The notes: generated from the letters alone by a model not told the origin. Numbered from the stretch's first letter, positions 161 through 25,528 are shown. The stretch is 64,000 bases of DNA from Escherichia phage LYE-01 (PQ303785.1); one strand, 5' to 3'. Program-made: numbers and translations.

Positions 161-257
161 ATTTCAAATTTTTTTCACAAAACAGTTTACATCCTTGCTC
201 TTCTATGGTACTATACAACTATCGGCAATACTGCTGATGATTAAAGAGGAAAATAAC

Positions 258-528: not shown

Positions 529-909
529 ATGTATACTGGTAGAAAGTATGAACTTGTTCCAAGACTTATTGATACATTTATTAATTATAGCCCACGTTCT
601 AATTCATCAATAGTTAAAGCTATTCGAGATAATGGCGGATGGTTTGAAGTTAAAGAAGTTTCCGTCGCTAATGGATATAAAGCAGTAAAACACATTGAAT
701 GCGCAAATGGAAAACATTTTTACCTCAAAGATAGACTTTTAGAAATTTGTGAAGACGAATTTCATTGTTTTCGTGAGTATAAAGAACCGACTTCTGAAGA
801 AGATGAAGTCGAAGACAAGATTTCTGGCGTAACAAAAATTCACTGCATTGTTGACGAAAACAATGTAGATGAAATCATTGAACTTTTGCGAAAAACTTTC
901 AAAAAGTAG
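529..909 (+). CDS. hypothetical protein, 126 aa
   Basis: ORF with GAGGAAA RBS upstream of ATG. Confidence 0.55.
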   Translation: MYTGRKYELVPRLIDTFINYSPRSNSSIVKAIRDNGGWFEVKEVSVANGYKAVKHIECANGKHFYLKDRLLEICEDEFHCFREYKEPTSEEDEVEDKISGVTKIHCIVDENNVDEIIELLRKTFKK

Positions 910-938
910 TTTACAGAAGGGTAGTAGTGTGATACTAT
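909..938 (+). promoter_or_regulatory. T4-type early promoter (sigma70-like)
   Basis: GTTTACA -35 at 909, 17-nt spacer, TACTAT -10 at 933; imperfect inverted repeat GGGTAGTAG/CTATTACCC overlaps the -10. Confidence 0.5.
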
Positions 939-963
939 TACCCTATCAATTAAGGAGAATAAA

Positions 964-2800: not shown

Positions 2801-3661
2801 ATGAAACAATACCAAGATTTAATTAAAGACATTTTTGAAAATGGCTATGAAACTGATGACCGAACAGGCACAGGAACAATTGCTTTGTTCGGTACTAAAT
2901 TACGCTGGGATTTAAGTAAAGGTTTTCCTGCAGTAACAACTAAGAAGCTCGCCTGGAAAGCTTGCATTGCTGAGCTAATATGGTTTTTATCAGGAAGCAC
3001 AAATGTCAATGATTTACGATTAATTCAGCATGATTCATTAATTCAAGGCAAAACAGTCTGGGATGAAAATTACGAAAATCAAGCAAAAGATTTAGGATAC
3101 CATAGCGGTGAACTTGGTCCAATTTATGGAAAACAATGGCGTGATTTTGGCGGTGTAGACCAAATTATAGAAGTTATTGATCGTATTAAAAAACTGCCGA
3201 ATGATAGGCGTCAAATTGTTTCTGCATGGAATCCAGCTGAACTTAAATATATGGCATTACCGCCTTGTCATATGTTCTATCAGTTTAATGTGCGTAATGG
3301 CTATTTGGATTTGCAGTGGTATCAAAGAAGTGTTGACGTGTTCTTGGGCTTGCCATTCAACATTGCATCATATGCTGCATTAGTTCATATTGTAGCTAAG
3401 ATGTGTAATCTTATTCCAGGAGATTTGATATTTTCTGGTGGTAATACTCATATCTATATGAATCACGTAGAACAATGTAAAGAAATTTTGCGTCGTGAAC
3501 CTATGGATTTATGCGAATTACAATTAAAATTTCCAGATGAATTTGATGAATGGGACACAGAATCACAGGTATTTTGGTTGAGTCAATTCGCAAAGCCGCA
3601 TAATTTTGTTCTTAACAACTATGTATCTCACCCTCCTATTAAAGGAAAAATGGCGGTGTAA
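2801..3661 (+). CDS. td: thymidylate synthase, uninterrupted (no group I intron)
   Basis: 286 aa continuous ORF, MKQYQDLIKDIFENGYETDDRTGTGT..., ends HPPIKGKMAV. Confidence 0.95.
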   Translation: MKQYQDLIKDIFENGYETDDRTGTGTIALFGTKLRWDLSKGFPAVTTKKLAWKACIAELIWFLSGSTNVNDLRLIQHDSLIQGKTVWDENYENQAKDLGYHSGELGPIYGKQWRDFGGVDQIIEVIDRIKKLPNDRRQIVSAWNPAELKYMALPPCHMFYQFNVRNGYLDLQWYQRSVDVFLGLPFNIASYAALVHIVAKMCNLIPGDLIFSGGNTHIYMNHVEQCKEILRREPMDLCELQLKFPDEFDEWDTESQVFWLSQFAKPHNFVLNNYVSHPPIKGKMAV

Positions 3662-6534: not shown

Positions 6535-7713
6535 ATGAGCACAGTTTTTAATACAAATCCAGTTGATGTTTTAAAAGAACCTATGTTCTTCGGTTCAGGT
6601 CTTGGTATTGCGCGTTACGATATTCAACGTCATAAAGTTTTTGAAGATTTAACTGAAAAGCAGTTGTCATTTTTCTGGCGTCCTGAAGAAGTAAACTTGA
6701 TGATGGATGCTGCGCAATTTAACAAGCTTCCTCAGTATCAGCAAGATATTTTTACTAATAACCTGAAGTATCAATCACTTCTAGATAGCATTCAGGGTCG
6801 TGCACCGTCTGCAGTACTTATGTCATTAATTTCAGATCCAAGTCTTGATACATGGGTTGCTACATGGACTTTTAGTGAAACTATTCACAGCCGTTCATAT
6901 ACTCATATCATGCGAAATCTTTATACTGATCCATCAAAGGTATTTGATGAGATTGTACTAGATAAAGCTATTATGAAACGTGCTGAGTCCATTGGTCGCT
7001 ATTACGATGATGTTCTTAAAAAGACCCGTGAATGGGAAAATGCTAAAGAATTTGTAGAACTAGCTAAAGAATCTCCTGATGCTGATTTTCGTTTAAATCG
7101 AGCTATTAAACAAGAAGCCGAAGCTAAACGAGCACTAATGAAATCTCTTTATCTTTGCCTCCATGTAATCAATGCATTGGAAGCTATTCGTTTTTATGTA
7201 TCTTTCGCATGTACCTTTAACTTCCATAAGAACATGGAAATCATGGAAGGTAATGCTAAGATTATGAAGTTCATTGCGCGTGATGAGCAACTTCATCTTA
7301 AAGGCACTCAATATATTATTCGTCAACTTCAACTTGGCACTGACGGTGATGAATGGGTTAAAATTGCTCAAGAGTGTGAACAAGAAGCAGTTGATATTTT
7401 CATGGAAGTTAACCGTCAAGAAAAAGACTGGGCAGTTCATTTATTTAAAGATGGCGATGTTCCCGGATTAAATACAAATAGCATGTGGAGCTTTATTGAT
7501 TACTTAACTGTATCTCGTATGAAACATTGTGGTCTTCCATGTCCAATTACCGATGCTCCGGTTAAACATCCATATCCTTGGATTCGTGAATACCTTAATT
7601 CTGATAATGTTCAATCCGCGCCACAAGAAGTAGAACTGTCATCTTACCTTGTAGCACAGATTGATAATGATGTTGATGATAAAGTTATGATGAGTTTTAA
7701 AAAATATTTTTAA
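6535..7713 (+). CDS. nrdB: ribonucleotide reductase small subunit, uninterrupted (no intron)
   Basis: 392 aa continuous ORF starting MSTVFNTNPVDV... Confidence 0.95.
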   Translation: MSTVFNTNPVDVLKEPMFFGSGLGIARYDIQRHKVFEDLTEKQLSFFWRPEEVNLMMDAAQFNKLPQYQQDIFTNNLKYQSLLDSIQGRAPSAVLMSLISDPSLDTWVATWTFSETIHSRSYTHIMRNLYTDPSKVFDEIVLDKAIMKRAESIGRYYDDVLKKTREWENAKEFVELAKESPDADFRLNRAIKQEAEAKRALMKSLYLCLHVINALEAIRFYVSFACTFNFHKNMEIMEGNAKIMKFIARDEQLHLKGTQYIIRQLQLGTDGDEWVKIAQECEQEAVDIFMEVNRQEKDWAVHLFKDGDVPGLNTNSMWSFIDYLTVSRMKHCGLPCPITDAPVKHPYPWIREYLNSDNVQSAPQEVELSSYLVAQIDNDVDDKVMMSFKKYF

Positions 7714-7740: not shown

Positions 7741-9328
<1,588 letters not shown>

Positions 9329-9331
9329 GCT

Positions 9332-9361
9332 GTTTACAAGTCCCTCGTGTTGTGTTACAGT
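9332..9361 (+). promoter_or_regulatory. T4-type early promoter
   Basis: GTTTACA -35, 17-nt spacer, TACAGT -10; the 54-nt element 9332-9385 is nearly identical to 25151-25204. Confidence 0.5.
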
Positions 9362-9389
9362 AGTCTTACTGACATAACATGAGGACTTT

Positions 9390-9896
9390 ATGATGGATTT
9401 ACAGCTTATTACTACTGAAATGGTCGTTGAAGCATATGGTGATACTACAGATGGGATTTCTGTATTTAAAGGAAATCGTCGAGTTGGATATATCACCGAT
9501 CTTAAGAAAGATTTAGCTAAGCAAGTTAAGCGGAAAACGACCATCAAAGAATATCGAAATCGTCGTCTTGAGCAAGCCCGTGATATGCTTCCTGATGCAG
9601 TTGAGGAGATGAAAGTCTTTTTAGAAAATCAGCTTGCGAAATATGATTGTGAAGTATTCATTAATCAGACTCAACCTAATGTTCATATTAATAACTGTAA
9701 ATGCTACATCATTGTTAATCCTTTGACAGAAAAGCATCGTCTTGGAATTAGTAATCCAAATCGTAGCGCATCAGATATGGCAGAAGATGTTGAGGCATGC
9801 TTTAAAATTTCTAAATCTCCAGCTGAACATCATATTTTAATTAACGGTCTTTCTCAAGACGATATTGTAGAGGTTATTAAAACTTTATGCATGTAA
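9390..9896 (+). CDS. alc: probable Alc (host transcription shutoff protein)
   Basis: 168 aa, size and position between rnlA and pseT as in T4. Confidence 0.6.
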   Translation: MMDLQLITTEMVVEAYGDTTDGISVFKGNRRVGYITDLKKDLAKQVKRKTTIKEYRNRRLEQARDMLPDAVEEMKVFLENQLAKYDCEVFINQTQPNVHINNCKCYIIVNPLTEKHRLGISNPNRSASDMAEDVEACFKISKSPAEHHILINGLSQDDIVEVIKTLCM

Positions 9897-10763: not shown

Positions 10764-11984
<1,221 letters not shown>

Positions 11985-12655: not shown

Positions 12656-12694
12656 GTTTACTTTACGGTAGAGTTGTGATATTATAGCTCTACC
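12656..12694 (+). promoter_or_regulatory. T4-type early promoter with stem-loop
   Basis: GTTTAC -35 at 12656, TATTAT -10 at 12680, inverted repeat GGTAGAG/CTCTACC flanking the -10. Confidence 0.5.
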
Positions 12695-12715
12695 AAAACA
12701 AATGAGGAAATTGAA

Positions 12716-13243
12716 ATGAGCGAATGGTTTGAAGAAGATAAGGTTTATCGCTTTAAAGCTGGATATAAAGATATTTTTAATGAAACTTGCGGAGCTAATA
12801 AACGAATTGCACAGTTTATTGGGGAAAATTCATTTAAAGTAAAAATAGATCCTGCGAAAAATGTTATTAGCATTAAACGTGAAATTGATGATTGCTGGTA
12901 TAAAGCTGTTGATGTAATGGGTGAATCCTATAAAGTTAGTCCGTTATTTTCAATTGCTTATATGTTAGAATATTCTTTTTTCGAAGAAGTTCAAAAAGAT
13001 GATTCTGTCAGTAAATTTGAAATTAAAGCTGATAAAGAAATTAAATGGAAAGTAGTAGGTATTACTGGTTGTATGTTCTATATCTATGCTCAAACTGATA
13101 CGAAGGAAGAAGCTAAAAAGAAAGCTCTAGAATATCTTGAAGAGTATGAAGAAGGTCCGGTAATGATTACTCAAGATGCCGAATTAGTTTCTGTCAAATT
13201 AGTTAAAAACGTTGAAAGTAAGGAGCTTGGATCAACATGCTAA
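12716..13243 (+). CDS. hypothetical protein, 175 aa
   Basis: ORF with GAGGAAA RBS. Confidence 0.5.
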   Translation: MSEWFEEDKVYRFKAGYKDIFNETCGANKRIAQFIGENSFKVKIDPAKNVISIKREIDDCWYKAVDVMGESYKVSPLFSIAYMLEYSFFEEVQKDDSVSKFEIKADKEIKWKVVGITGCMFYIYAQTDTKEEAKKKALEYLEEYEEGPVMITQDAELVSVKLVKNVESKELGSTC

Positions 13244-16144: not shown

Positions 16145-16172
16145 GAGGACTCCTTCGGGAGTCCTTTTTTAT
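16145..16172 (+). terminator. Rho-independent terminator
   Basis: GGACTCC TTCG GGAGTCC hairpin plus T6. Confidence 0.7.
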
Positions 16173-16194: not shown

Positions 16195-16243
16195 GTTTAC
16201 AGTATAGTTCCTTTGTGATAGTATTATCTTACACAAACAAAGG
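16195..16243 (+). promoter_or_regulatory. T4-type early promoter with stem-loop
   Basis: GTTTACA at 16195, 17-nt spacer, TAGTAT; CCTTTGT/ACAAAGG inverted repeat. Confidence 0.45.
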
Positions 16244-16251
16244 AGAATAAA

Positions 16252-16584
16252 ATGAAAACGATTAATCTGAACGCTGCGGTTAAAGCTAAATGTTTCAATG
16301 GTGAATATAACGAAACTATGTGGTTCTTAATGGCAGTTGAAGGTGATATTATTGAAGTAGAAACAACAGAAGGTATGGGAACAGATTTCACCTTTACAAT
16401 TCAAGTTCATAATTTCTTTACTGGTTGGATTTATGAATTGAATACAGTAATCGTTGGAAAAATTGAACAAAATGAATTAGGTGAATGGTATTATGTTACA
16501 GCTCGCCAACGTGCAGAACGCTTAATTGAGAAGATGAAAAAAGTTGGCAAACTTGACATGCAGCACTGGAAAGTAGTAAAATAA
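16252..16584 (+). CDS. hypothetical protein, 110 aa
   Basis: ORF with AAGGAGA RBS. Confidence 0.5.
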   Translation: MKTINLNAAVKAKCFNGEYNETMWFLMAVEGDIIEVETTEGMGTDFTFTIQVHNFFTGWIYELNTVIVGKIEQNELGEWYYVTARQRAERLIEKMKKVGKLDMQHWKVVK

Positions 16585-16586
16585 TT

Positions 16587-16626
16587 GTTTACTTTGGTAC
16601 AGGATATGATATTATATACCTGTACC
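16587..16626 (+). promoter_or_regulatory. T4-type early promoter with stem-loop
   Basis: GTTTAC at 16587, TATTAT at 16610, inverted repeat GGTACAGG/CCTGTACC. Confidence 0.5.
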
Positions 16627-20944: not shown

Positions 20945-20966
20945 AGGCCTTCGGGCCTTTAATTTT
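20944..20966 (+). terminator. Rho-independent terminator closing the early gene block
   Basis: AAGGCC TTCG GGCCTT hairpin then T-rich tract. Confidence 0.6.
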
Positions 20967-20973
20967 ATAAATA
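20966..20973 (+). promoter_or_regulatory. late promoter TATAAATA upstream of Alt-like genes
   Basis: Exact TATAAATA 24 nt upstream of ATG 20997. Confidence 0.5.
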
Positions 20974-20996
20974 GAATAAACACTAGAGAGGATATG

Positions 20997-23090
20997 ATGG
21001 AACTCATTACAGAATTATTTGACGAAGATACTACTCTTCCGATTACAAACTTAAATCCAAAGAAGAAAATACCACAAATTTTTTCAGTTCATGTTGATGA
21101 TGCAATTGAACAACCAGGCTTTCGTTTATGTACCTATACATCTGGAGGTGATACTAATCGCGATTTAAAAATGGGCGATAAAATGATGCATATTGTTCCT
21201 TTTACATTAACTGCTAAAGGTTCAATTGCTAAATTAAAAGGTCTCGGTCCAAGTCCAATTAATTACATCAATTCAGTTTTTACTGTTGCAATGCAGACGA
21301 TGCGTCAGTATAAAATTGATGCCTGTATGCTTCGTATTCTTAAGTCTAAAACTGCTGGTCAAGCTCGACAAATTCAAGTTATTGCTGATAGACTTATCCG
21401 TAGTCGTTCAGGTGGCAGATACGTCCTTCTTAAGGAACTCTGGGATTACGATAAAAAGTACGCATATATTCTTATACATCGCAAAAATGTATCACTAGAA
21501 GACATTCCAGGAGTTCCGGAAATTAGTACCGAGCTTTTTACTAAAGTCGAATCGAAGGTCGGCGATGTTTATATCAATAAAGATACTGGAGCTCAAGTAA
21601 CTAAAAATGAAGCAATTGCAGCATCTATTGCGCAAGAAAATGATAAACGTTCTGACCAAGCTGTAATCGTTAAAGTTAAAATTTCCCGTAGAGCAATTGC
21701 GCAAAGTCAATCATTAGAATCTTCTAGATTTGAAAGCGAATTATTCCAGAAGTATGAATCTACCGCAGCCAATTTTAATAAGCCTGCTACTGCTCCTTTA
21801 ATTCCAGAAGCAGAAGAAATGAAGCTTGGAATTAATTCATTAGCTTCTAAAACTAAGGCAGCAAAAATCATTGCCGAAGGAACCGCAGATGAACTTCACT
21901 ATGACTATAAATTCTTTTCAAAAAGTGAGGTTAATGAAGTTTCTGAAAAAATTAAAGATGTAATTCTTAATGCGATTAAAAATGAACCAACTACTTCAAT
22001 AAAATGTTTAGAGAAATACGCAGCAGCTGTTAATCAATTCTTTGAAGAATATAAAGATAATTGGCTTGATAAACATAATAAAACTCGTAAAGGACAGCCA
22101 GATGAAGTCTGGGAAGAAATAACTAAAAATTCCTGGAACGCAGCAAAAACTAAATTCCTCAAACGAATGATTTATAGCTTTTCTGGAATTGGTGCAGGTC
22201 CAATGATTGATATTACCATTGCCCGTGATGGTTCTAAATACACTCCATCGCAAAAGCGCGGAATTAGAGAGTATTGCGGATCAGGATATACTGACATCAA
22301 TAATCTTCTTTTAGGCCGCTACAATCCAGAACGATATGATGTAATGAGTGAAAAAGAAATTGAATCTGCGATAAATAATTTAGATTCAGCTTTTGAAAAT
22401 GGTGACCGTATACCAGAAGGCATTACAGTTTATCGTGCTCAAAGTATGACTGCTCCTATATATGAAGCACTAGTTAAAAATAAAGTGTTCTATTTCAGAA
22501 ATTTTGTATCTACTTCTTTAACTCCTATCATTTTTGGACGTTTTGGAATTACACATGCTGGTATCGGTCTTTTAGAACCAGAAGCTCGCAATGAATTAAC
22601 AGTTGATAAAAATGAAGAAGGAATAACTATTAATCCAAACGAAATAAGAGCGTATAAAGAAAATCCTGAATACGTTAAAGTTCAAATAGGATGGGCTATT
22701 GATGGAGCTCATAAAGTTAATGTTGTATATCCAGGAAGTCTCGGAATAGCAACAGAAGCTGAAGTTATTCTACCACGCGGATTGATGGTCAAAGTTAATA
22801 AAATAACTGATGCTTCTAATAATGATGGAACAACATCTAATAATACAAAACTCATTCAAGCTGAAGTTATGACTACGGAAGAACTCACCGAATCGGTAAT
22901 TTATGACGGTGACCGTCTAATGGAAACTGGTGAATTGGTTGCAATGACAGATGATATTGAAATAGAAGACAGAGTTGACTTTGCATCATTTGTTTCATCA
23001 AATGTTAAACAGAAAGCAGAATCATCTCTCGGAATTATTGCGTCTTGCATAGATATTACAAACATGCCTTACAAGTTCGTTCAAGGATAA
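20997..23090 (+). CDS. Alt-like ADP-ribosyltransferase paralog A (R-S-EXE type), about 697 aa
   Basis: N-terminal MELITELFD... region shared with the downstream paralog; C-terminal motifs VYRAQ, FVSTSL, EAEVILPRG. Confidence 0.8.
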   Translation: MELITELFDEDTTLPITNLNPKKKIPQIFSVHVDDAIEQPGFRLCTYTSGGDTNRDLKMGDKMMHIVPFTLTAKGSIAKLKGLGPSPINYINSVFTVAMQTMRQYKIDACMLRILKSKTAGQARQIQVIADRLIRSRSGGRYVLLKELWDYDKKYAYILIHRKNVSLEDIPGVPEISTELFTKVESKVGDVYINKDTGAQVTKNEAIAASIAQENDKRSDQAVIVKVKISRRAIAQSQSLESSRFESELFQKYESTAANFNKPATAPLIPEAEEMKLGINSLASKTKAAKIIAEGTADELHYDYKFFSKSEVNEVSEKIKDVILNAIKNEPTTSIKCLEKYAAAVNQFFEEYKDNWLDKHNKTRKGQPDEVWEEITKNSWNAAKTKFLKRMIYSFSGIGAGPMIDITIARDGSKYTPSQKRGIREYCGSGYTDINNLLLGRYNPERYDVMSEKEIESAINNLDSAFENGDRIPEGITVYRAQSMTAPIYEALVKNKVFYFRNFVSTSLTPIIFGRFGITHAGIGLLEPEARNELTVDKNEEGITINPNEIRAYKENPEYVKVQIGWAIDGAHKVNVVYPGSLGIATEAEVILPRGLMVKVNKITDASNNDGTTSNNTKLIQAEVMTTEELTESVIYDGDRLMETGELVAMTDDIEIEDRVDFASFVSSNVKQKAESSLGIIASCIDITNMPYKFVQG

Positions 23091-23093
23091 ATC

Positions 23094-25151
23094 ATGGAAC
23101 TTATTACAGAATTATTTGACGGCGCTTCGGCGCCGGTTGTTAACTTAAATCCTAAGCATAAAATACCTCAAATTTTTGCTATTCAAGCAGGCGAAGAAAG
23201 CGTGCTTCCTGGATTTAGATTTTGTACATACACCTCTGGCGGTGATACAAATAAAAACGTTAAGCCAGGCGATAAAATGATGCATATCGTAATGATAGGT
23301 GTCAATGAGAAACTATCATTAGTTAAACTTAGAAACTTGGGTGGAAATCCAATTGGTGTCATTAATGCGGTTTTTGATACTGCTCTTCAGACAATGAAAC
23401 AATACAAAATTGACGCATGCTTATTCCGCGTACTAAAGAGTAAAACAAATGGTGCAGCTCGTCAAATGCAAGTTATTGCCGACCGTTTAGTACGTACTAA
23501 AGGAGCAGGTCGATATGTTCTTTTAAAGGAAATCTGGGATTACGATAAAAAGTACGCATATATTATGGTTTACCGTAAAAATGCTAATTTAGAAGACATT
23601 CCAGGTGTACCTCCTATTTCAACTGAGTTATTCACAAAAGTTGAATCAAAGGTTGGTGATGTTTATGTAGATGTTAAAACAGGTAATGCTGTTCCTAAAG
23701 CTGTTGCTGTTGCTGCTTCTATTGCTTTAGAAAATGATAAGCGCACGGATCAAGCTGTTATTCAGAAAACTAAAATTAGTCGTCGGTTAGCAGCACAAGC
23801 TCAATATTCTACTGTCGATGCTTCACTTCAGGGTGATAGCTTCGCTGCTAAGAAATATCAAGAGTTTGAATCTAAAGTTCCGGTATATAAAGCAGAAGGA
23901 CCAATGAACTCTGGCGTTATTCAGGTTGGTTCAAACTTCAGCAAAGGAGCTATCGGTGGTATGAGAAGTGCTTCCCGTTTTAAATCTAGTGATTATGAAT
24001 TAGAAAGCTTCCGAAATCATATTGCATTGGCTCATGCGCGTTTACGTGATCCATCTATCAAGTTACAGAGCGATATATCATATCAAGGTTCTCAAGAATA
24101 TTTAAAGAATAAAGAATTTTTTGATTATAAAACTGATAAAATTTTAAGTGATCTTGCTGACATTAATATTTCTAATAGCTTTGATGTTATTAAGAAAATT
24201 GTCAATGATTTAGTTAAAGGTTCTAAAGCCACACCAGATGAAAAGGTAGCTATTGTTCAATTTGTCATGAATGGCGTTTATAAATTGATTAATGAGTCTG
24301 CTTCTCAAGCGTATGAATATGCAAGTACTGAAGTAACTCCAAAAGGATTAACTCAGGCTGAGTCTGATGTAATTGAAGATTATTGTGCAGATTCATATGT
24401 TGAAATGAACTCGTTCCTTTTAGGTAAACCGGATTCTACTCGTGAAGAATACATGGAACGAGCTATTAAACACATCGAGACAATGGATTCTGCCTTTGCC
24501 AAAGGATCAGTTCTTCCTCCAGGAACTACACTTTACCGTGGACAAGAAGTTACCTTTAAAACTTTACGTCATAATATTGAAAATAAAATGTTCTACTTCA
24601 AGAACTTCGTATCCACATCGCTTAAACCAAATATCTTCGGTGAGTATGGTAAAAACTATATGGCTCTAGATGATTCCGGCGCAGTATTTTCTGGTGAAGG
24701 AGAAGGTTCAGTTGACGCAGAAGATTTGATGCATATGGGCAGTCACTCTGCTTATGCGAATGAAGATGCTGAAACTAGCGTGGGTATGGTAATTAAAGGA
24801 GCTGAGCGAATCAAAGTTATCGTTCCAGGACATTTATCAGGATTTCCATCAGAAGCTGAAGTTATTTTACCGCGTGGAATTTTGCTGAAGATTAATAAAG
24901 TGAGTACGTACATGATGAAAGAAACTGCTTATAATAAGTATCTAATCGAAGGCACAATCGTTCCTCCTTCTGAACAATTAGAAGAATCGGTATATGATGG
25001 CGACCATCTAATGGAAACTGGTGAAGTTCGTCCAATGGCTGGATTTAATCAATTCCTTGTAGAAGAATCAAAAGAAGAGGAAAACGAAGTTTCTCAAATC
25101 TTGGCTTCTTTGGTTAACATCAACGGAATGTCTAAAAAGTTCAAGATGTAG
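23094..25151 (+). CDS. alt: Alt-like ADP-ribosyltransferase paralog B (probable alt), 685 aa
   Basis: MELITELFD... N-terminus; LYRGQ, FVSTSL, EAEVILPRG motifs; adjacent to gene 54 as T4 alt. Confidence 0.75.
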   Translation: MELITELFDGASAPVVNLNPKHKIPQIFAIQAGEESVLPGFRFCTYTSGGDTNKNVKPGDKMMHIVMIGVNEKLSLVKLRNLGGNPIGVINAVFDTALQTMKQYKIDACLFRVLKSKTNGAARQMQVIADRLVRTKGAGRYVLLKEIWDYDKKYAYIMVYRKNANLEDIPGVPPISTELFTKVESKVGDVYVDVKTGNAVPKAVAVAASIALENDKRTDQAVIQKTKISRRLAAQAQYSTVDASLQGDSFAAKKYQEFESKVPVYKAEGPMNSGVIQVGSNFSKGAIGGMRSASRFKSSDYELESFRNHIALAHARLRDPSIKLQSDISYQGSQEYLKNKEFFDYKTDKILSDLADINISNSFDVIKKIVNDLVKGSKATPDEKVAIVQFVMNGVYKLINESASQAYEYASTEVTPKGLTQAESDVIEDYCADSYVEMNSFLLGKPDSTREEYMERAIKHIETMDSAFAKGSVLPPGTTLYRGQEVTFKTLRHNIENKMFYFKNFVSTSLKPNIFGEYGKNYMALDDSGAVFSGEGEGSVDAEDLMHMGSHSAYANEDAETSVGMVIKGAERIKVIVPGHLSGFPSEAEVILPRGILLKINKVSTYMMKETAYNKYLIEGTIVPPSEQLEESVYDGDHLMETGEVRPMAGFNQFLVEESKEEENEVSQILASLVNINGMSKKFKM

Positions 25152-25180
25152 TTTACAAGTCACTCGTGTTGTGTTATAAT
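25151..25180 (+). promoter_or_regulatory. T4-type early promoter (near-identical copy of the alc promoter element)
   Basis: GTTTACA -35, 17-nt spacer, TATAAT -10; 54-nt element 25151-25204 differs from 9332-9385 at about 5 positions. Confidence 0.55.
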
Positions 25181-25211
25181 AATCTTACTGACATAACATG
25201 AGGAACACAAA

Positions 25212-25502
25212 ATGAAATCTTCTTTGCGCTTTTTAGGTCAAGAACTCGTAGTTGAAGGCGTTATTCCTGCTGATAACGCTTTTAATGAAGCGGTTTACGA
25301 CGAATTTATCAAAATTTTTGGAACAGATAAAAAGTTCGGAATTTTTCCTTCTGAAAATTTTTCAAAGCCAGAACAGACTGAAAGCATTTTCCAAGGTGTA
25401 GTAACAGGTAAATTTGAGTCAGAAGCTCCGGTAAAAATTGAAGTTTATATTGAAGACAGTTTAGTTGCTTCAGTTGCTGCTTTTATTTCATTCCGTAAAT
25501 AA
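25212..25502 (+). CDS. hypothetical protein, 96 aa
   Basis: ORF with GAGGAA RBS directly downstream of the early promoter copy. Confidence 0.55.
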   Translation: MKSSLRFLGQELVVEGVIPADNAFNEAVYDEFIKIFGTDKKFGIFPSENFSKPEQTESIFQGVVTGKFESEAPVKIEVYIEDSLVASVAAFISFRK

Positions 25503-25506
25503 AAAT

Positions 25507-25528
25507 ATGGGGACCTTTCGGTCCCCAT
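25507..25528. terminator. bidirectional hairpin terminator between convergent genes
   Basis: ATGGGGACC TTTC GGTCCCCAT between the + strand ORF and gene 54. Confidence 0.6.

Follow-up and report, generated by a model that had tools for sequence, protein, structure and literature searches.

What is the role of two nearly identical promoter elements that stand in front of two different genes of a T4-like phage? The question is raised by Escherichia phage LYE-01 (PQ303785.1), of which a stretch of 64,000 nt was analysed (the window, whose numbering is used throughout and whose + strand is the T4 early direction). By Megablast, the window is a T4-like early region of the genus Tequatrovirus, and it carries one 54-nt element between rnlA and alc (copy 1, at 9332) and another before alt.-3 (copy 2, at 25151; Table 1). 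An earlier note on this DNA had counted the two among six early-promoter modules with stem-loops that would mediate the shuffling of accessory open reading frames (ORFs), and had named the genes just behind them as the likeliest recent acquisitions. The Shine-Dalgarno sequence (SD) in the 3' arm of the pair and the conserved compensatory pairing at alc, both of which escaped that note, point to a putative regulatory hairpin rather than to a shuffling linker. We consider it moderately probable that the pair is an early-promoter version of the translational gate of the T4 genes e, soc, 49 and I-TevI, a gate that would be ancestral at alc and would have been copied to alt.-3.

The two copies agree at 50 of 54 positions (93%), which bears out the near-identity described before and lowers its count of about five mismatches to four (positions 12, 27, 29 and 32). 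One difference lies at the base of the stem and three in the -10/loop region, and the last 22 nt are identical. The chance expectation for a pair of this quality is ~7e-15 in the whole window, and ~5e-16 to ~1e-15 if 13 promoter positions are held fixed. The promoter of copy 2 (TTTACA-17-TATAAT) matches the sigma-70 consensus (TTGACA/TATAAT) at 11 of 12 positions and has a TG in addition; that of copy 1 (TTTACA-17-TACAGT, also with TG) is one off the consensus of promoter early stem-loops (PeSLs) in its -10, where T4 has TATAGT. The late-promoter motif TATAAATA is absent from both sites, which have promoters of the early sigma-70 type. The first base of copy 2 overlaps the stop codon of the second of two alt paralogs.

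The SD GAGGA is part of the leader, UGACAUAACAUGAGG, to which the -35/-10 spacer, CCUCGUGUUGUGUUA, is complementary in both copies. Folded as part of a read-through RNA, copy 1 reaches a minimum free energy of -28.6 kcal/mol (z -5.24; none of 200 shuffles was as stable) with the whole SD paired, and copy 2 reaches -21.2 kcal/mol (z -3.26). RNAs beginning near the predicted starts, which lie ~7 nt after the -10 in both copies, are unstructured (-3.2 kcal/mol and z -0.64 from 9367; -3.3 kcal/mol and z +1.05 from 25186). Transcripts from the cassette itself would lack the 5' arm because this arm lies between -35 and -10, a consequence of promoter geometry alone.

Each element would then be a T4-type early (sigma-70) promoter fused to a short leader, with a spacer complementary to that leader including its SD. 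RNA reading through from rnlA into copy 1, or from the late-transcribed alt genes into copy 2, would contain both arms, and a hairpin of ~15-22 bp would bury the SD of alc or alt.-3. RNA begun at the cassette promoter would start between the arms and keep the SD free. In this way the cassette would tie the translation of alc and alt.-3 to their own immediate-early promoter and insulate it from upstream transcription. It is from promoter geometry and predicted folds that we infer promoter activity, start sites and the translational effect. For copy 2, the late promoter TATAAATA at 20966 is a likely source of late read-through RNA; since this promoter lies upstream of alt and alt is reported as a late gene (PMC9697503), late read-through into alt.-3 is plausible.

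The logic would be that of T4 e, soc, 49, I-TevI and other homing endonucleases, in which promoter-embedded hairpins sequester the SD (review PMC3014915, section 29), with an early promoter in place of a late one. Common to both are an SD held in a helix in upstream-derived transcripts (here in predicted folds), a promoter on or just after the 5' strand, whose own transcripts are devoid of that strand and so translatable (here by the predicted start), and a structure conserved among related phages (here 11 genera with co-varying arms). All described cases, in contrast, use the late promoter and prevent early translation, whereas the pair has an early sigma-70 promoter, its 5' strand is the -35/-10 spacer itself, and its gate would allow immediate-early translation and block that from delayed-early, middle and late read-through. 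The element would work like this family but is a variant, not a member of the family as it is described. Catalogued T4 early promoters (e.g., Pe133295, NC_000866) are promoter entries only, and some GenBank records label the alc cassette 'promoter'. Rfam gave no match anywhere in the window at its gathering thresholds, nor any within 9200-9500 when E<=1 was allowed.

The pair is also related to the PeSLs, which were defined in RB49 and phi1 by Arbiol et al. 2010 (PMC2839356), the paper referred to in the earlier note, and were extended to T4 and PST with the consensus TTTACW-N17-TAYWAT by Comeau et al. 2014 (PMC4122927). The modules of the window agree with this consensus, that at 9332 closely. 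Terminator and recombination roles were proposed in these two papers, and translation is mentioned in neither. Like PeSLs, the pair has an early sigma-70-type promoter close to the consensus, with a TTTACW -35 and an N17 spacer, and a stem-loop overlapping the -10 and the spacer (z -5.2 and -3.3, compared with -3.5 to -4.8 at modules 909, 12656 and 16587); the SD and start codon of the downstream gene stand at its 3' end. It is likewise intergenic and repeated along the early region, where some modules adjoin insertions or deletions (indels). Unlike PeSLs, it flanks conserved genes and not ORFans, and it is fixed at two sites in ~500 genomes. The location at ORFans or indels applies to module 12656 and, in T4, to module 909; at the pair only the region upstream of copy 2 varies. 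Moreover, the stem of the pair belongs to neither the GGGG/CCCC nor the AGNA/TCNT type and has the SD as its 3' arm, and the published PST stems lie upstream of the promoter (PMC4122927), whereas those of the pair enclose the -10.

Pairing with the SD is also supported by other genera. The rnlA|alc intergenic regions came from GenBank phages and IMG/VR contigs; IMG/VR yielded few loci when queried with single proteins and small alignments, and the phage GenBank collection was far more productive. In per-sequence folds, the spacer pairs with the alc SD in 11 genera with differing arm sequences, namely Tequatrovirus, Marfavirus, Gelderlandvirus, Karamvirus, Winklervirus, Kanagawavirus, Muldoonvirus, Dhakavirus, Roskildevirus, Bragavirus and Klebsiella phage Phi_KR1. 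The 5' and 3' arms read UCUCCGUUUAGUUA and UAACCAAACGGAGA in Gelderlandvirus, UCUCCAUUUGGUUG and UAACCAAAUGGAGA in Karamvirus, UCUCCUCAG and CUGAGGAGA in Roskildevirus, AACCUCUCAUUUU and AAAAUGAGAGGUU in Bragavirus, and UCCUCGUUUUGAU and AAUCAAAACGAGGA in Muldoonvirus. In an ungapped alignment of seven genera, 94.9% of the cells pair and five of the 14 pairs change on both sides, a value that is 0 in all slid controls. An alignment-free test gave cognate spacer/leader duplexes a mean of -20.7 kcal/mol, compared with -11.8 kcal/mol for non-cognate ones, and for 11 of 12 spacers the best partner was the own leader (permutation p<1e-5). Within Tequatrovirus, stem variants of the 5' arm keep the pairing (G.U to A-U, C-G to U.G), and the 3' arm hardly varies. 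Spacer/SD pairing has a bimodal distribution among 35 GTTTAC promoters of seven genomes: the promoters of alc, of Tequatrovirus alt.-3 and of a 30.7-like gene of Melville and KaAlpha pair strongly (first percentile of the controls or lower), and the others stay at background level.

Within Tequatrovirus the pair is a fixed trait. A 58-nt query with copy 1 matched at 997 places spread over 499 phage records, with two places in each genome and no third location; T4, T2, T6, AR1, the RB phages and isolates from Yersinia and Shigella are among these records, and the one odd record is a 13-kb fragment. The two copies of T4 differ at one of 54 positions. The sequences of both copies were available from seven genomes, namely the window, T4, PST, ZN18, G8 and two of metagenomic origin. 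In this set, copy 1 has TACAGT in the window and in G8, and copy 2 has CAC...TATAATAAT in the window and in ZN18, and TTCCTTATG in PST and in L014; no variant is common to both copies of one genome, and it is orthologous copies that share them. The variants track the locus and not the genome, and there is therefore no sign of ongoing conversion.

The genes behind the pair are old residents, in conflict with the expectation that they would be the likeliest recent acquisitions. Matches to alc were found by tblastn in 1138 phage records of more than 12 genera, out to Acinetobacter and Aeromonas phages, and the gene directly follows rnlA in all 11 sampled genera with the hairpin. The DUF5498 gene alt.-3 has matches in 836 records, and its place in RB69, VR25, Marfa, Melville and KaAlpha is between alt and gene 54. 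Conservation (T4, PST, RB69, VR25) extends to genes 30.8 and 30.7, which follow modules 16195 and 16587. The pair is thus a genus-wide fixed duplication of a promoter/leader cassette before old conserved genes and not a recent shuffle.

How did alt.-3 come by its copy? Among the genera compared, the alc-type cassette occurs at alt.-3 in Tequatrovirus only. The alt.-3 promoters of RB69, VR25, Marfa, Melville and KaAlpha show no SD complementarity, their spacers containing a palindrome of 4-6 bp whose loop is of the GGA(A) type, and the alc cassette was therefore probably copied onto alt.-3 in the Tequatrovirus ancestor. Between the alc and alt.-3 promoters of these outgroups the similarity is 56-72%, and the baseline among unrelated early promoters is 59-75%. 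Already present in the outgroup alt.-3 promoters are GTTTACAAG (5' end) and AACATGAGGAA (3' end). To judge from these sequences, the arrangement is probably ancestral at rnlA|alc, and the alc cassette probably replaced the interior of a resident alt.-3 promoter once, in the ancestor of Tequatrovirus. Conversion of a short patch between GTTTACAAG and AACATGAGGA, already common to both promoters, is the likely route, with both copies kept since; a patch between the microhomologies GTTTACAAG and AACATGAGGAA would give exactly the 54-nt boundaries. Both the copying event and its direction from alc to alt.-3 are what we infer from this comparison. A conversion of the RB69 alc promoter from that phage's own alt.-3 promoter was also considered and dropped, the similarity of 71% being barely above the 59-75% baseline.

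The hairpins could instead act on the upstream message, as attenuators or terminators or as 3'-end barriers that stabilise the rnlA or alt mRNA once it is processed, the overlap with the SD being incidental to very short leaders. Each hairpin does follow immediately after a stop codon, as intrinsic terminators do, one PeSL stem-loop of RB49 is reported to have cut downstream lacZ expression as much as the rrnB T1 terminator (PMC2839356), and three hairpins of the window miss the SD, so that an SD-independent function exists. However, no U tract follows either copy, and a terminator scan flags nothing at 9332-9390 or 25151-25212; the hairpins that it does flag, at 16145-16166 and 25507-25528, look unlike the two copies. 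Leaders are ~30 nt long at both 12656 and copy 1, yet only alc-type stems reach the SD, which is inside the predicted stem in all 17 hairpin-bearing alc modules of 11 genera with completely different arm sequences. We regard an action on the upstream message as unlikely. A structure selected in the DNA, as a cruciform or single-strand hairpin modulating promoter strength, replication or recombination, or as a palindrome bound by protein, appears very unlikely to us. The equal stability of sense and antisense folds across genera, as expected of a DNA palindrome, the stem-loop-binding protein speculated on by Arbiol et al. (PMC2839356) and the short spacer palindromes with a conserved GGA(A) loop in outgroup promoters speak for such a role. 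On the other hand, the sense RNA of Tequatrovirus is more stable than the antisense RNA by 8-9 kcal/mol owing to three G.U pairs, the C-G to U.G change within the genus is tolerated only in sense RNA, and a role in DNA gives no reason for the 3' arm to be the SD.

As for the proposal of mobile promoter/stem-loop linkers, which offer homology for the recombination of adjacent accessory ORFs and would have shuffled alc and alt.-3 recently, its concept and its T4/PST consensus are published and parts of the window agree with it. ORF213 is an insertion relative to T4 that starts at 12710, directly behind module 12656. In T4 (locus L035), the equivalent of module 909 and its hairpin are followed at once by an insertion of 85 nt, which has an SD of its own and a hydrophobic mini-ORF of 22 codons (MFAPYIMAAVMLVCLYLLIKAC); this insertion is missing from the window (equivalent 949/951, between frd.2 and frd.1). 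The region upstream of copy 2 is polymorphic, with one alt in PST, alt and the remnants alt.-1 and alt.-2 in T4 and two full alt genes in the window; homology resumes at 25132, 19 nt before the -35 of copy 2, in ~100 records, and the cassette was evidently copied between loci once. Against this stand the conservation of alc and alt.-3 in place across genera, the two copies per genome with no third site, the locus-bound variants, with no sign of ongoing exchange in the seven genomes, and the co-variation of arm and SD, which a simple homology patch does not predict; recombination between the two direct repeats would, moreover, delete 15.8 kb with genes 30 and 31. Other indels relative to T4 (1229-1798, 2396-2755, 10767-11079, the introns and mobE) lie away from any module. 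The association of modules with indels is partial, and the shuffling idea, which fits 12656 (ORF213) and 909 (the T4 mini-ORF), fails for the pair, 16195 and 16587; as an account of the pair we hold it to be improbable. There is, finally, next to no chance that the similarity is merely what independent strong T4 early promoters share. All seven GTTTAC promoters of the window do have this motif, a TG-extended -10 and an A/C-rich leader in common, but the 50/54 identities of the pair compare with 16-35/54 ungapped (27-39 gapped) in every other combination, the chance expectation stays minute even with promoter positions fixed, and outgroups reach the same structure with different sequences, so that this reading is already refuted.

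Several observations weigh against an SD gate. The hairpins of modules 909, 12656 and 16587 leave the SD free, and the hairpin may have a general role, possibly for the upstream message, to which the SD overlap would be secondary. An A.G mismatch at the base of the copy 2 stem leaves the last two bases of GAGGA (25203-25204) unpaired. RNAalifold found no consensus structure on a plain MAFFT alignment of 15 alc modules, whose stems are out of register between genera; the support therefore rests on the per-sequence folds, the ungapped seven-genus alignment and the alignment-free duplex test. A covariance-model alignment mixed reverse-strand hits and shifted registers and was excluded from the pair counts. 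Only 8 of 15 folds across genera favour the sense strand (Wilcoxon p 0.45), and the selected structure is therefore not shown to be sense RNA rather than DNA or antisense RNA. In Mosigvirus (RB69, PhAPEC2) alc is present without the pairing, with a short hairpin inside the spacer instead, and the pairing is therefore dispensable. No description of the near-identity of the alc and alt.-3 promoters, of the spacer/SD complementarity or of an alc-specific hairpin was found in the open-access literature; older subscription papers may have one.

Further exceptions to the pairing at alc are Gaprivervirus and the sampled Acinetobacter and Aeromonas phages. Gaprivervirus VR25 has no SD hairpin; between rnlA and the alc region it has a GGGG/CCCC hairpin followed by a T-rich stretch (terminator-like), which overlaps a promoter and would be another route to the same insulation. 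Between rnlA and the full-length alc of this genus there is an ORF of 77 aa, a duplicate of the N-terminal part of Alc (L007, 2498-2731; VR25, L043, 15352-15585), and it is this ORF that the terminator-like hairpin and promoter precede.

Beyond the pair itself, we tentatively suggest, with slightly less than even confidence, that there is a conserved class of T4-like early promoters whose spacer is an anti-SD, and whose genes would have their translation strictly tied to the proximal immediate-early promoter and blind to delayed-early, middle and late read-through. This class would comprise the promoters of alc (at least 11 genera), alt.-3 (Tequatrovirus) and the 30.7-like gene (Gelderlandvirus and Karamvirus), and its cassettes would be transplantable by conversion patches. 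Alc is the protein that shuts off transcription of cytosine-containing DNA. Should the proposed gate operate, it would explain how products such as Alc, the clearest case, are strictly immediate-early despite genes that lie in long units read through later, and the transplantation of a whole cassette between loci would rewire the temporal translation of a gene that has not moved. The classic T4 mechanism of e, soc, 49 and I-TevI would be extended from late to early promoters, and stem-loops of the PeSL type would obtain a regulatory reason for conservation, apart from recombination. Regulatory cassettes, and not ORFs alone, would be exchanged between loci. In annotation, the repetition of a promoter module should therefore not be taken by itself to mark genes as recently acquired.

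Table 1. Promoter modules, hairpin arms and neighbouring genes in the window
Feature	Position	Strand	Description
Seventh GTTTAC match	185-214	+	Before frd.3-like ORF; hairpin not significant, z -1.05
frd.2	529-909	+	Followed by module 909, then frd.1
Module 909	909-947	+	Between frd.2 and frd.1; hairpin around -10, SD outside the stem; z -3.50
rnlA	to 9328	+	Stop codon 9326-9328; followed by module 9332, then alc
Copy 1 (module 9332)	9332-9385	+	Between rnlA stop and alc start; -35 TTTACA 9333-9338, 17-nt spacer with TG, -10 TACAGT 9356-9361
Copy 1 hairpin, 5' arm	9338-9362	+	Covers -35/-10 spacer and -10; upstream of own predicted start
Copy 1 hairpin, 3' arm	9367-9388	+	Includes alc SD GAGGA (9381-9385), all paired in the read-through fold
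Copy 1 predicted transcription start	~A9368	+	From promoter geometry read in the sequence
alc	9390-9896	+	Start 9390/9393; Pfam ALC; conserved gene 3' of copy 1
cd.3	to 12653	+	Followed by module 12656, ORF213 (12716-13243), cd.2
Module 12656	12656-12694	+	Between cd.3 and ORF213; hairpin around -10, SD free; z -4.84
Module 16195	16195-16246	+	Before gene 30.8; spacer UUCCUUUGU can pair weakly with ACAAAGGAG (SD); z -3.34
Genes 30.9, 30.8, 30.7	30.8: 16252-16584	+	Order 30.9, module 16195, 30.8, module 16587, 30.7 (ORF list/annotation)
Module 16587	16587-16626	+	Before gene 30.7; hairpin around -10, SD free; z -4.52
T4 late-promoter motif TATAAATA	20966-20973	+	21 nt before alt
alt	20994-23090	+	Preceded by gene 30 and alt.1
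Second full-length alt paralog	23094-25151	+	Follows alt
Copy 2 (module 25151)	25151-25204	+	-35 TTTACA 25152-25157, -10 TATAAT 25175-25180; SD GAGGA 25200-25204
Copy 2 hairpin	25163-25202	+	5' arm 25163-25179 pairs with 3' arm 25185-25202, including GAG of the SD
Copy 2 predicted transcription start	~A25187	+	Predicted
alt.-3	25212-25502	+	ATG 25212; Pfam DUF5498; conserved gene 3' of copy 2

The six elements listed earlier, at 909, 9332, 12656, 16195, 16587 and 25151, are all present on the + strand, five of them with the TA..AT -10 ascribed to all; 9332 has TACAGT, and a seventh site, at 185, had gone unlisted. The strict pattern GTTTACW-N(15-18)-TANNAT finds six sites (185, 909, 12656, 16195, 16587 and 25151) compared with 0.74 expected, a number reached in none of 100 shuffles, and misses 9332 on account of its -10. 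A generic sigma-70 scan gave 62 sites in the window, compared with 74.6 expected, so that only the T4-specific GTTTAC pattern is enriched. Folding of the modules confirmed a significant hairpin around the -10 at five of the seven promoters (909, 9332, 12656, 16587 and 25151; z -3.3 to -5.2 relative to shuffles), a weaker one at 16195, whose spacer/leader duplex of -11.3 kcal/mol does not go beyond the 5th percentile of the controls, and none of significance at 185. The coordinates given earlier for two inverted repeats are exact: GGTAGAG (12667) with CTCTACC (12688), and GGTACAGG (16596) with CCTGTACC (16619). Module 12656 is the equivalent of the annotated T4 early promoter Pe133295 (NC_000866), which lies between cd.3 and cd.2 and in T4 directly precedes cd.2.

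The hairpin of the Tequatrovirus 30.7 promoter (16587) spares the SD, and the 30.7-like gene of Melville (L045, 5924-5986) and KaAlpha (L046, 7032-7094) is a second locus with an anti-SD design, in which the spacer CUCCGUUGUAU and the SD arm AUACAACGGAG form a perfect 11-bp stem with a long loop. In many early promoters of RB69 (L036), VR25 (L043), Marfa (L044), Melville and KaAlpha, before alt.-3 and before several further early genes, the -35/-10 spacer contains a palindrome of 4-6 bp whose loop, (A/T)GGA(A), is conserved and whose arms co-vary (e.g., ACAUCC-AUGGAA-GGAUGU, GCAC-AAGGAA-GUGC and ACCACA-CGGA-UGUGGU); the seven promoters of the window are all without it.

The gene order was derived from the PST and T4 annotations and the ORF list. 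The identity of the window is 96-97% to T4-like phages such as T4_ev240 and PST, and 99.3% to Yersinia phage ZN18 at ~24-27 kb (Megablast). The td (2801-3661) and nrdB (6535-7713) genes are intron-less here, and their T4 counterparts have a td intron with I-TevI, an nrdB intron with I-TevIII and mobE/nrdB.1 between nrdA and nrdB. Small ORFs not found in T4 lie at 1229-1798, 2396-2755, 10767-11079 and 12711-13237, with the PST counterparts ORF235/234, ORF232, ORF218 and ORF213; the 175-aa product of ORF213 had no Pfam match. An antisense ORF of 143 aa (9116-9547, - strand) that spans copy 1 is without counterpart in the PST or T4 annotation and is probably spurious. Downstream of alt.-3 lie the convergent late genes 54 and 48, and a perfect GC-rich palindrome of 9 bp between alt.-3 and gene 54 (25507-25528) is terminator-like on both strands, with a clear T run only on the minus-strand (gene 54) side. 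The tandem full-length alt (ADP-ribosyltransferase) paralogs are 72-94% identical by segment. The single alt of PST resembles the first of them in its 5' part and the second in its 3' part, and T4 carries the remnants alt.-1 and alt.-2 besides alt, a pattern that is consistent with unequal crossing-over.

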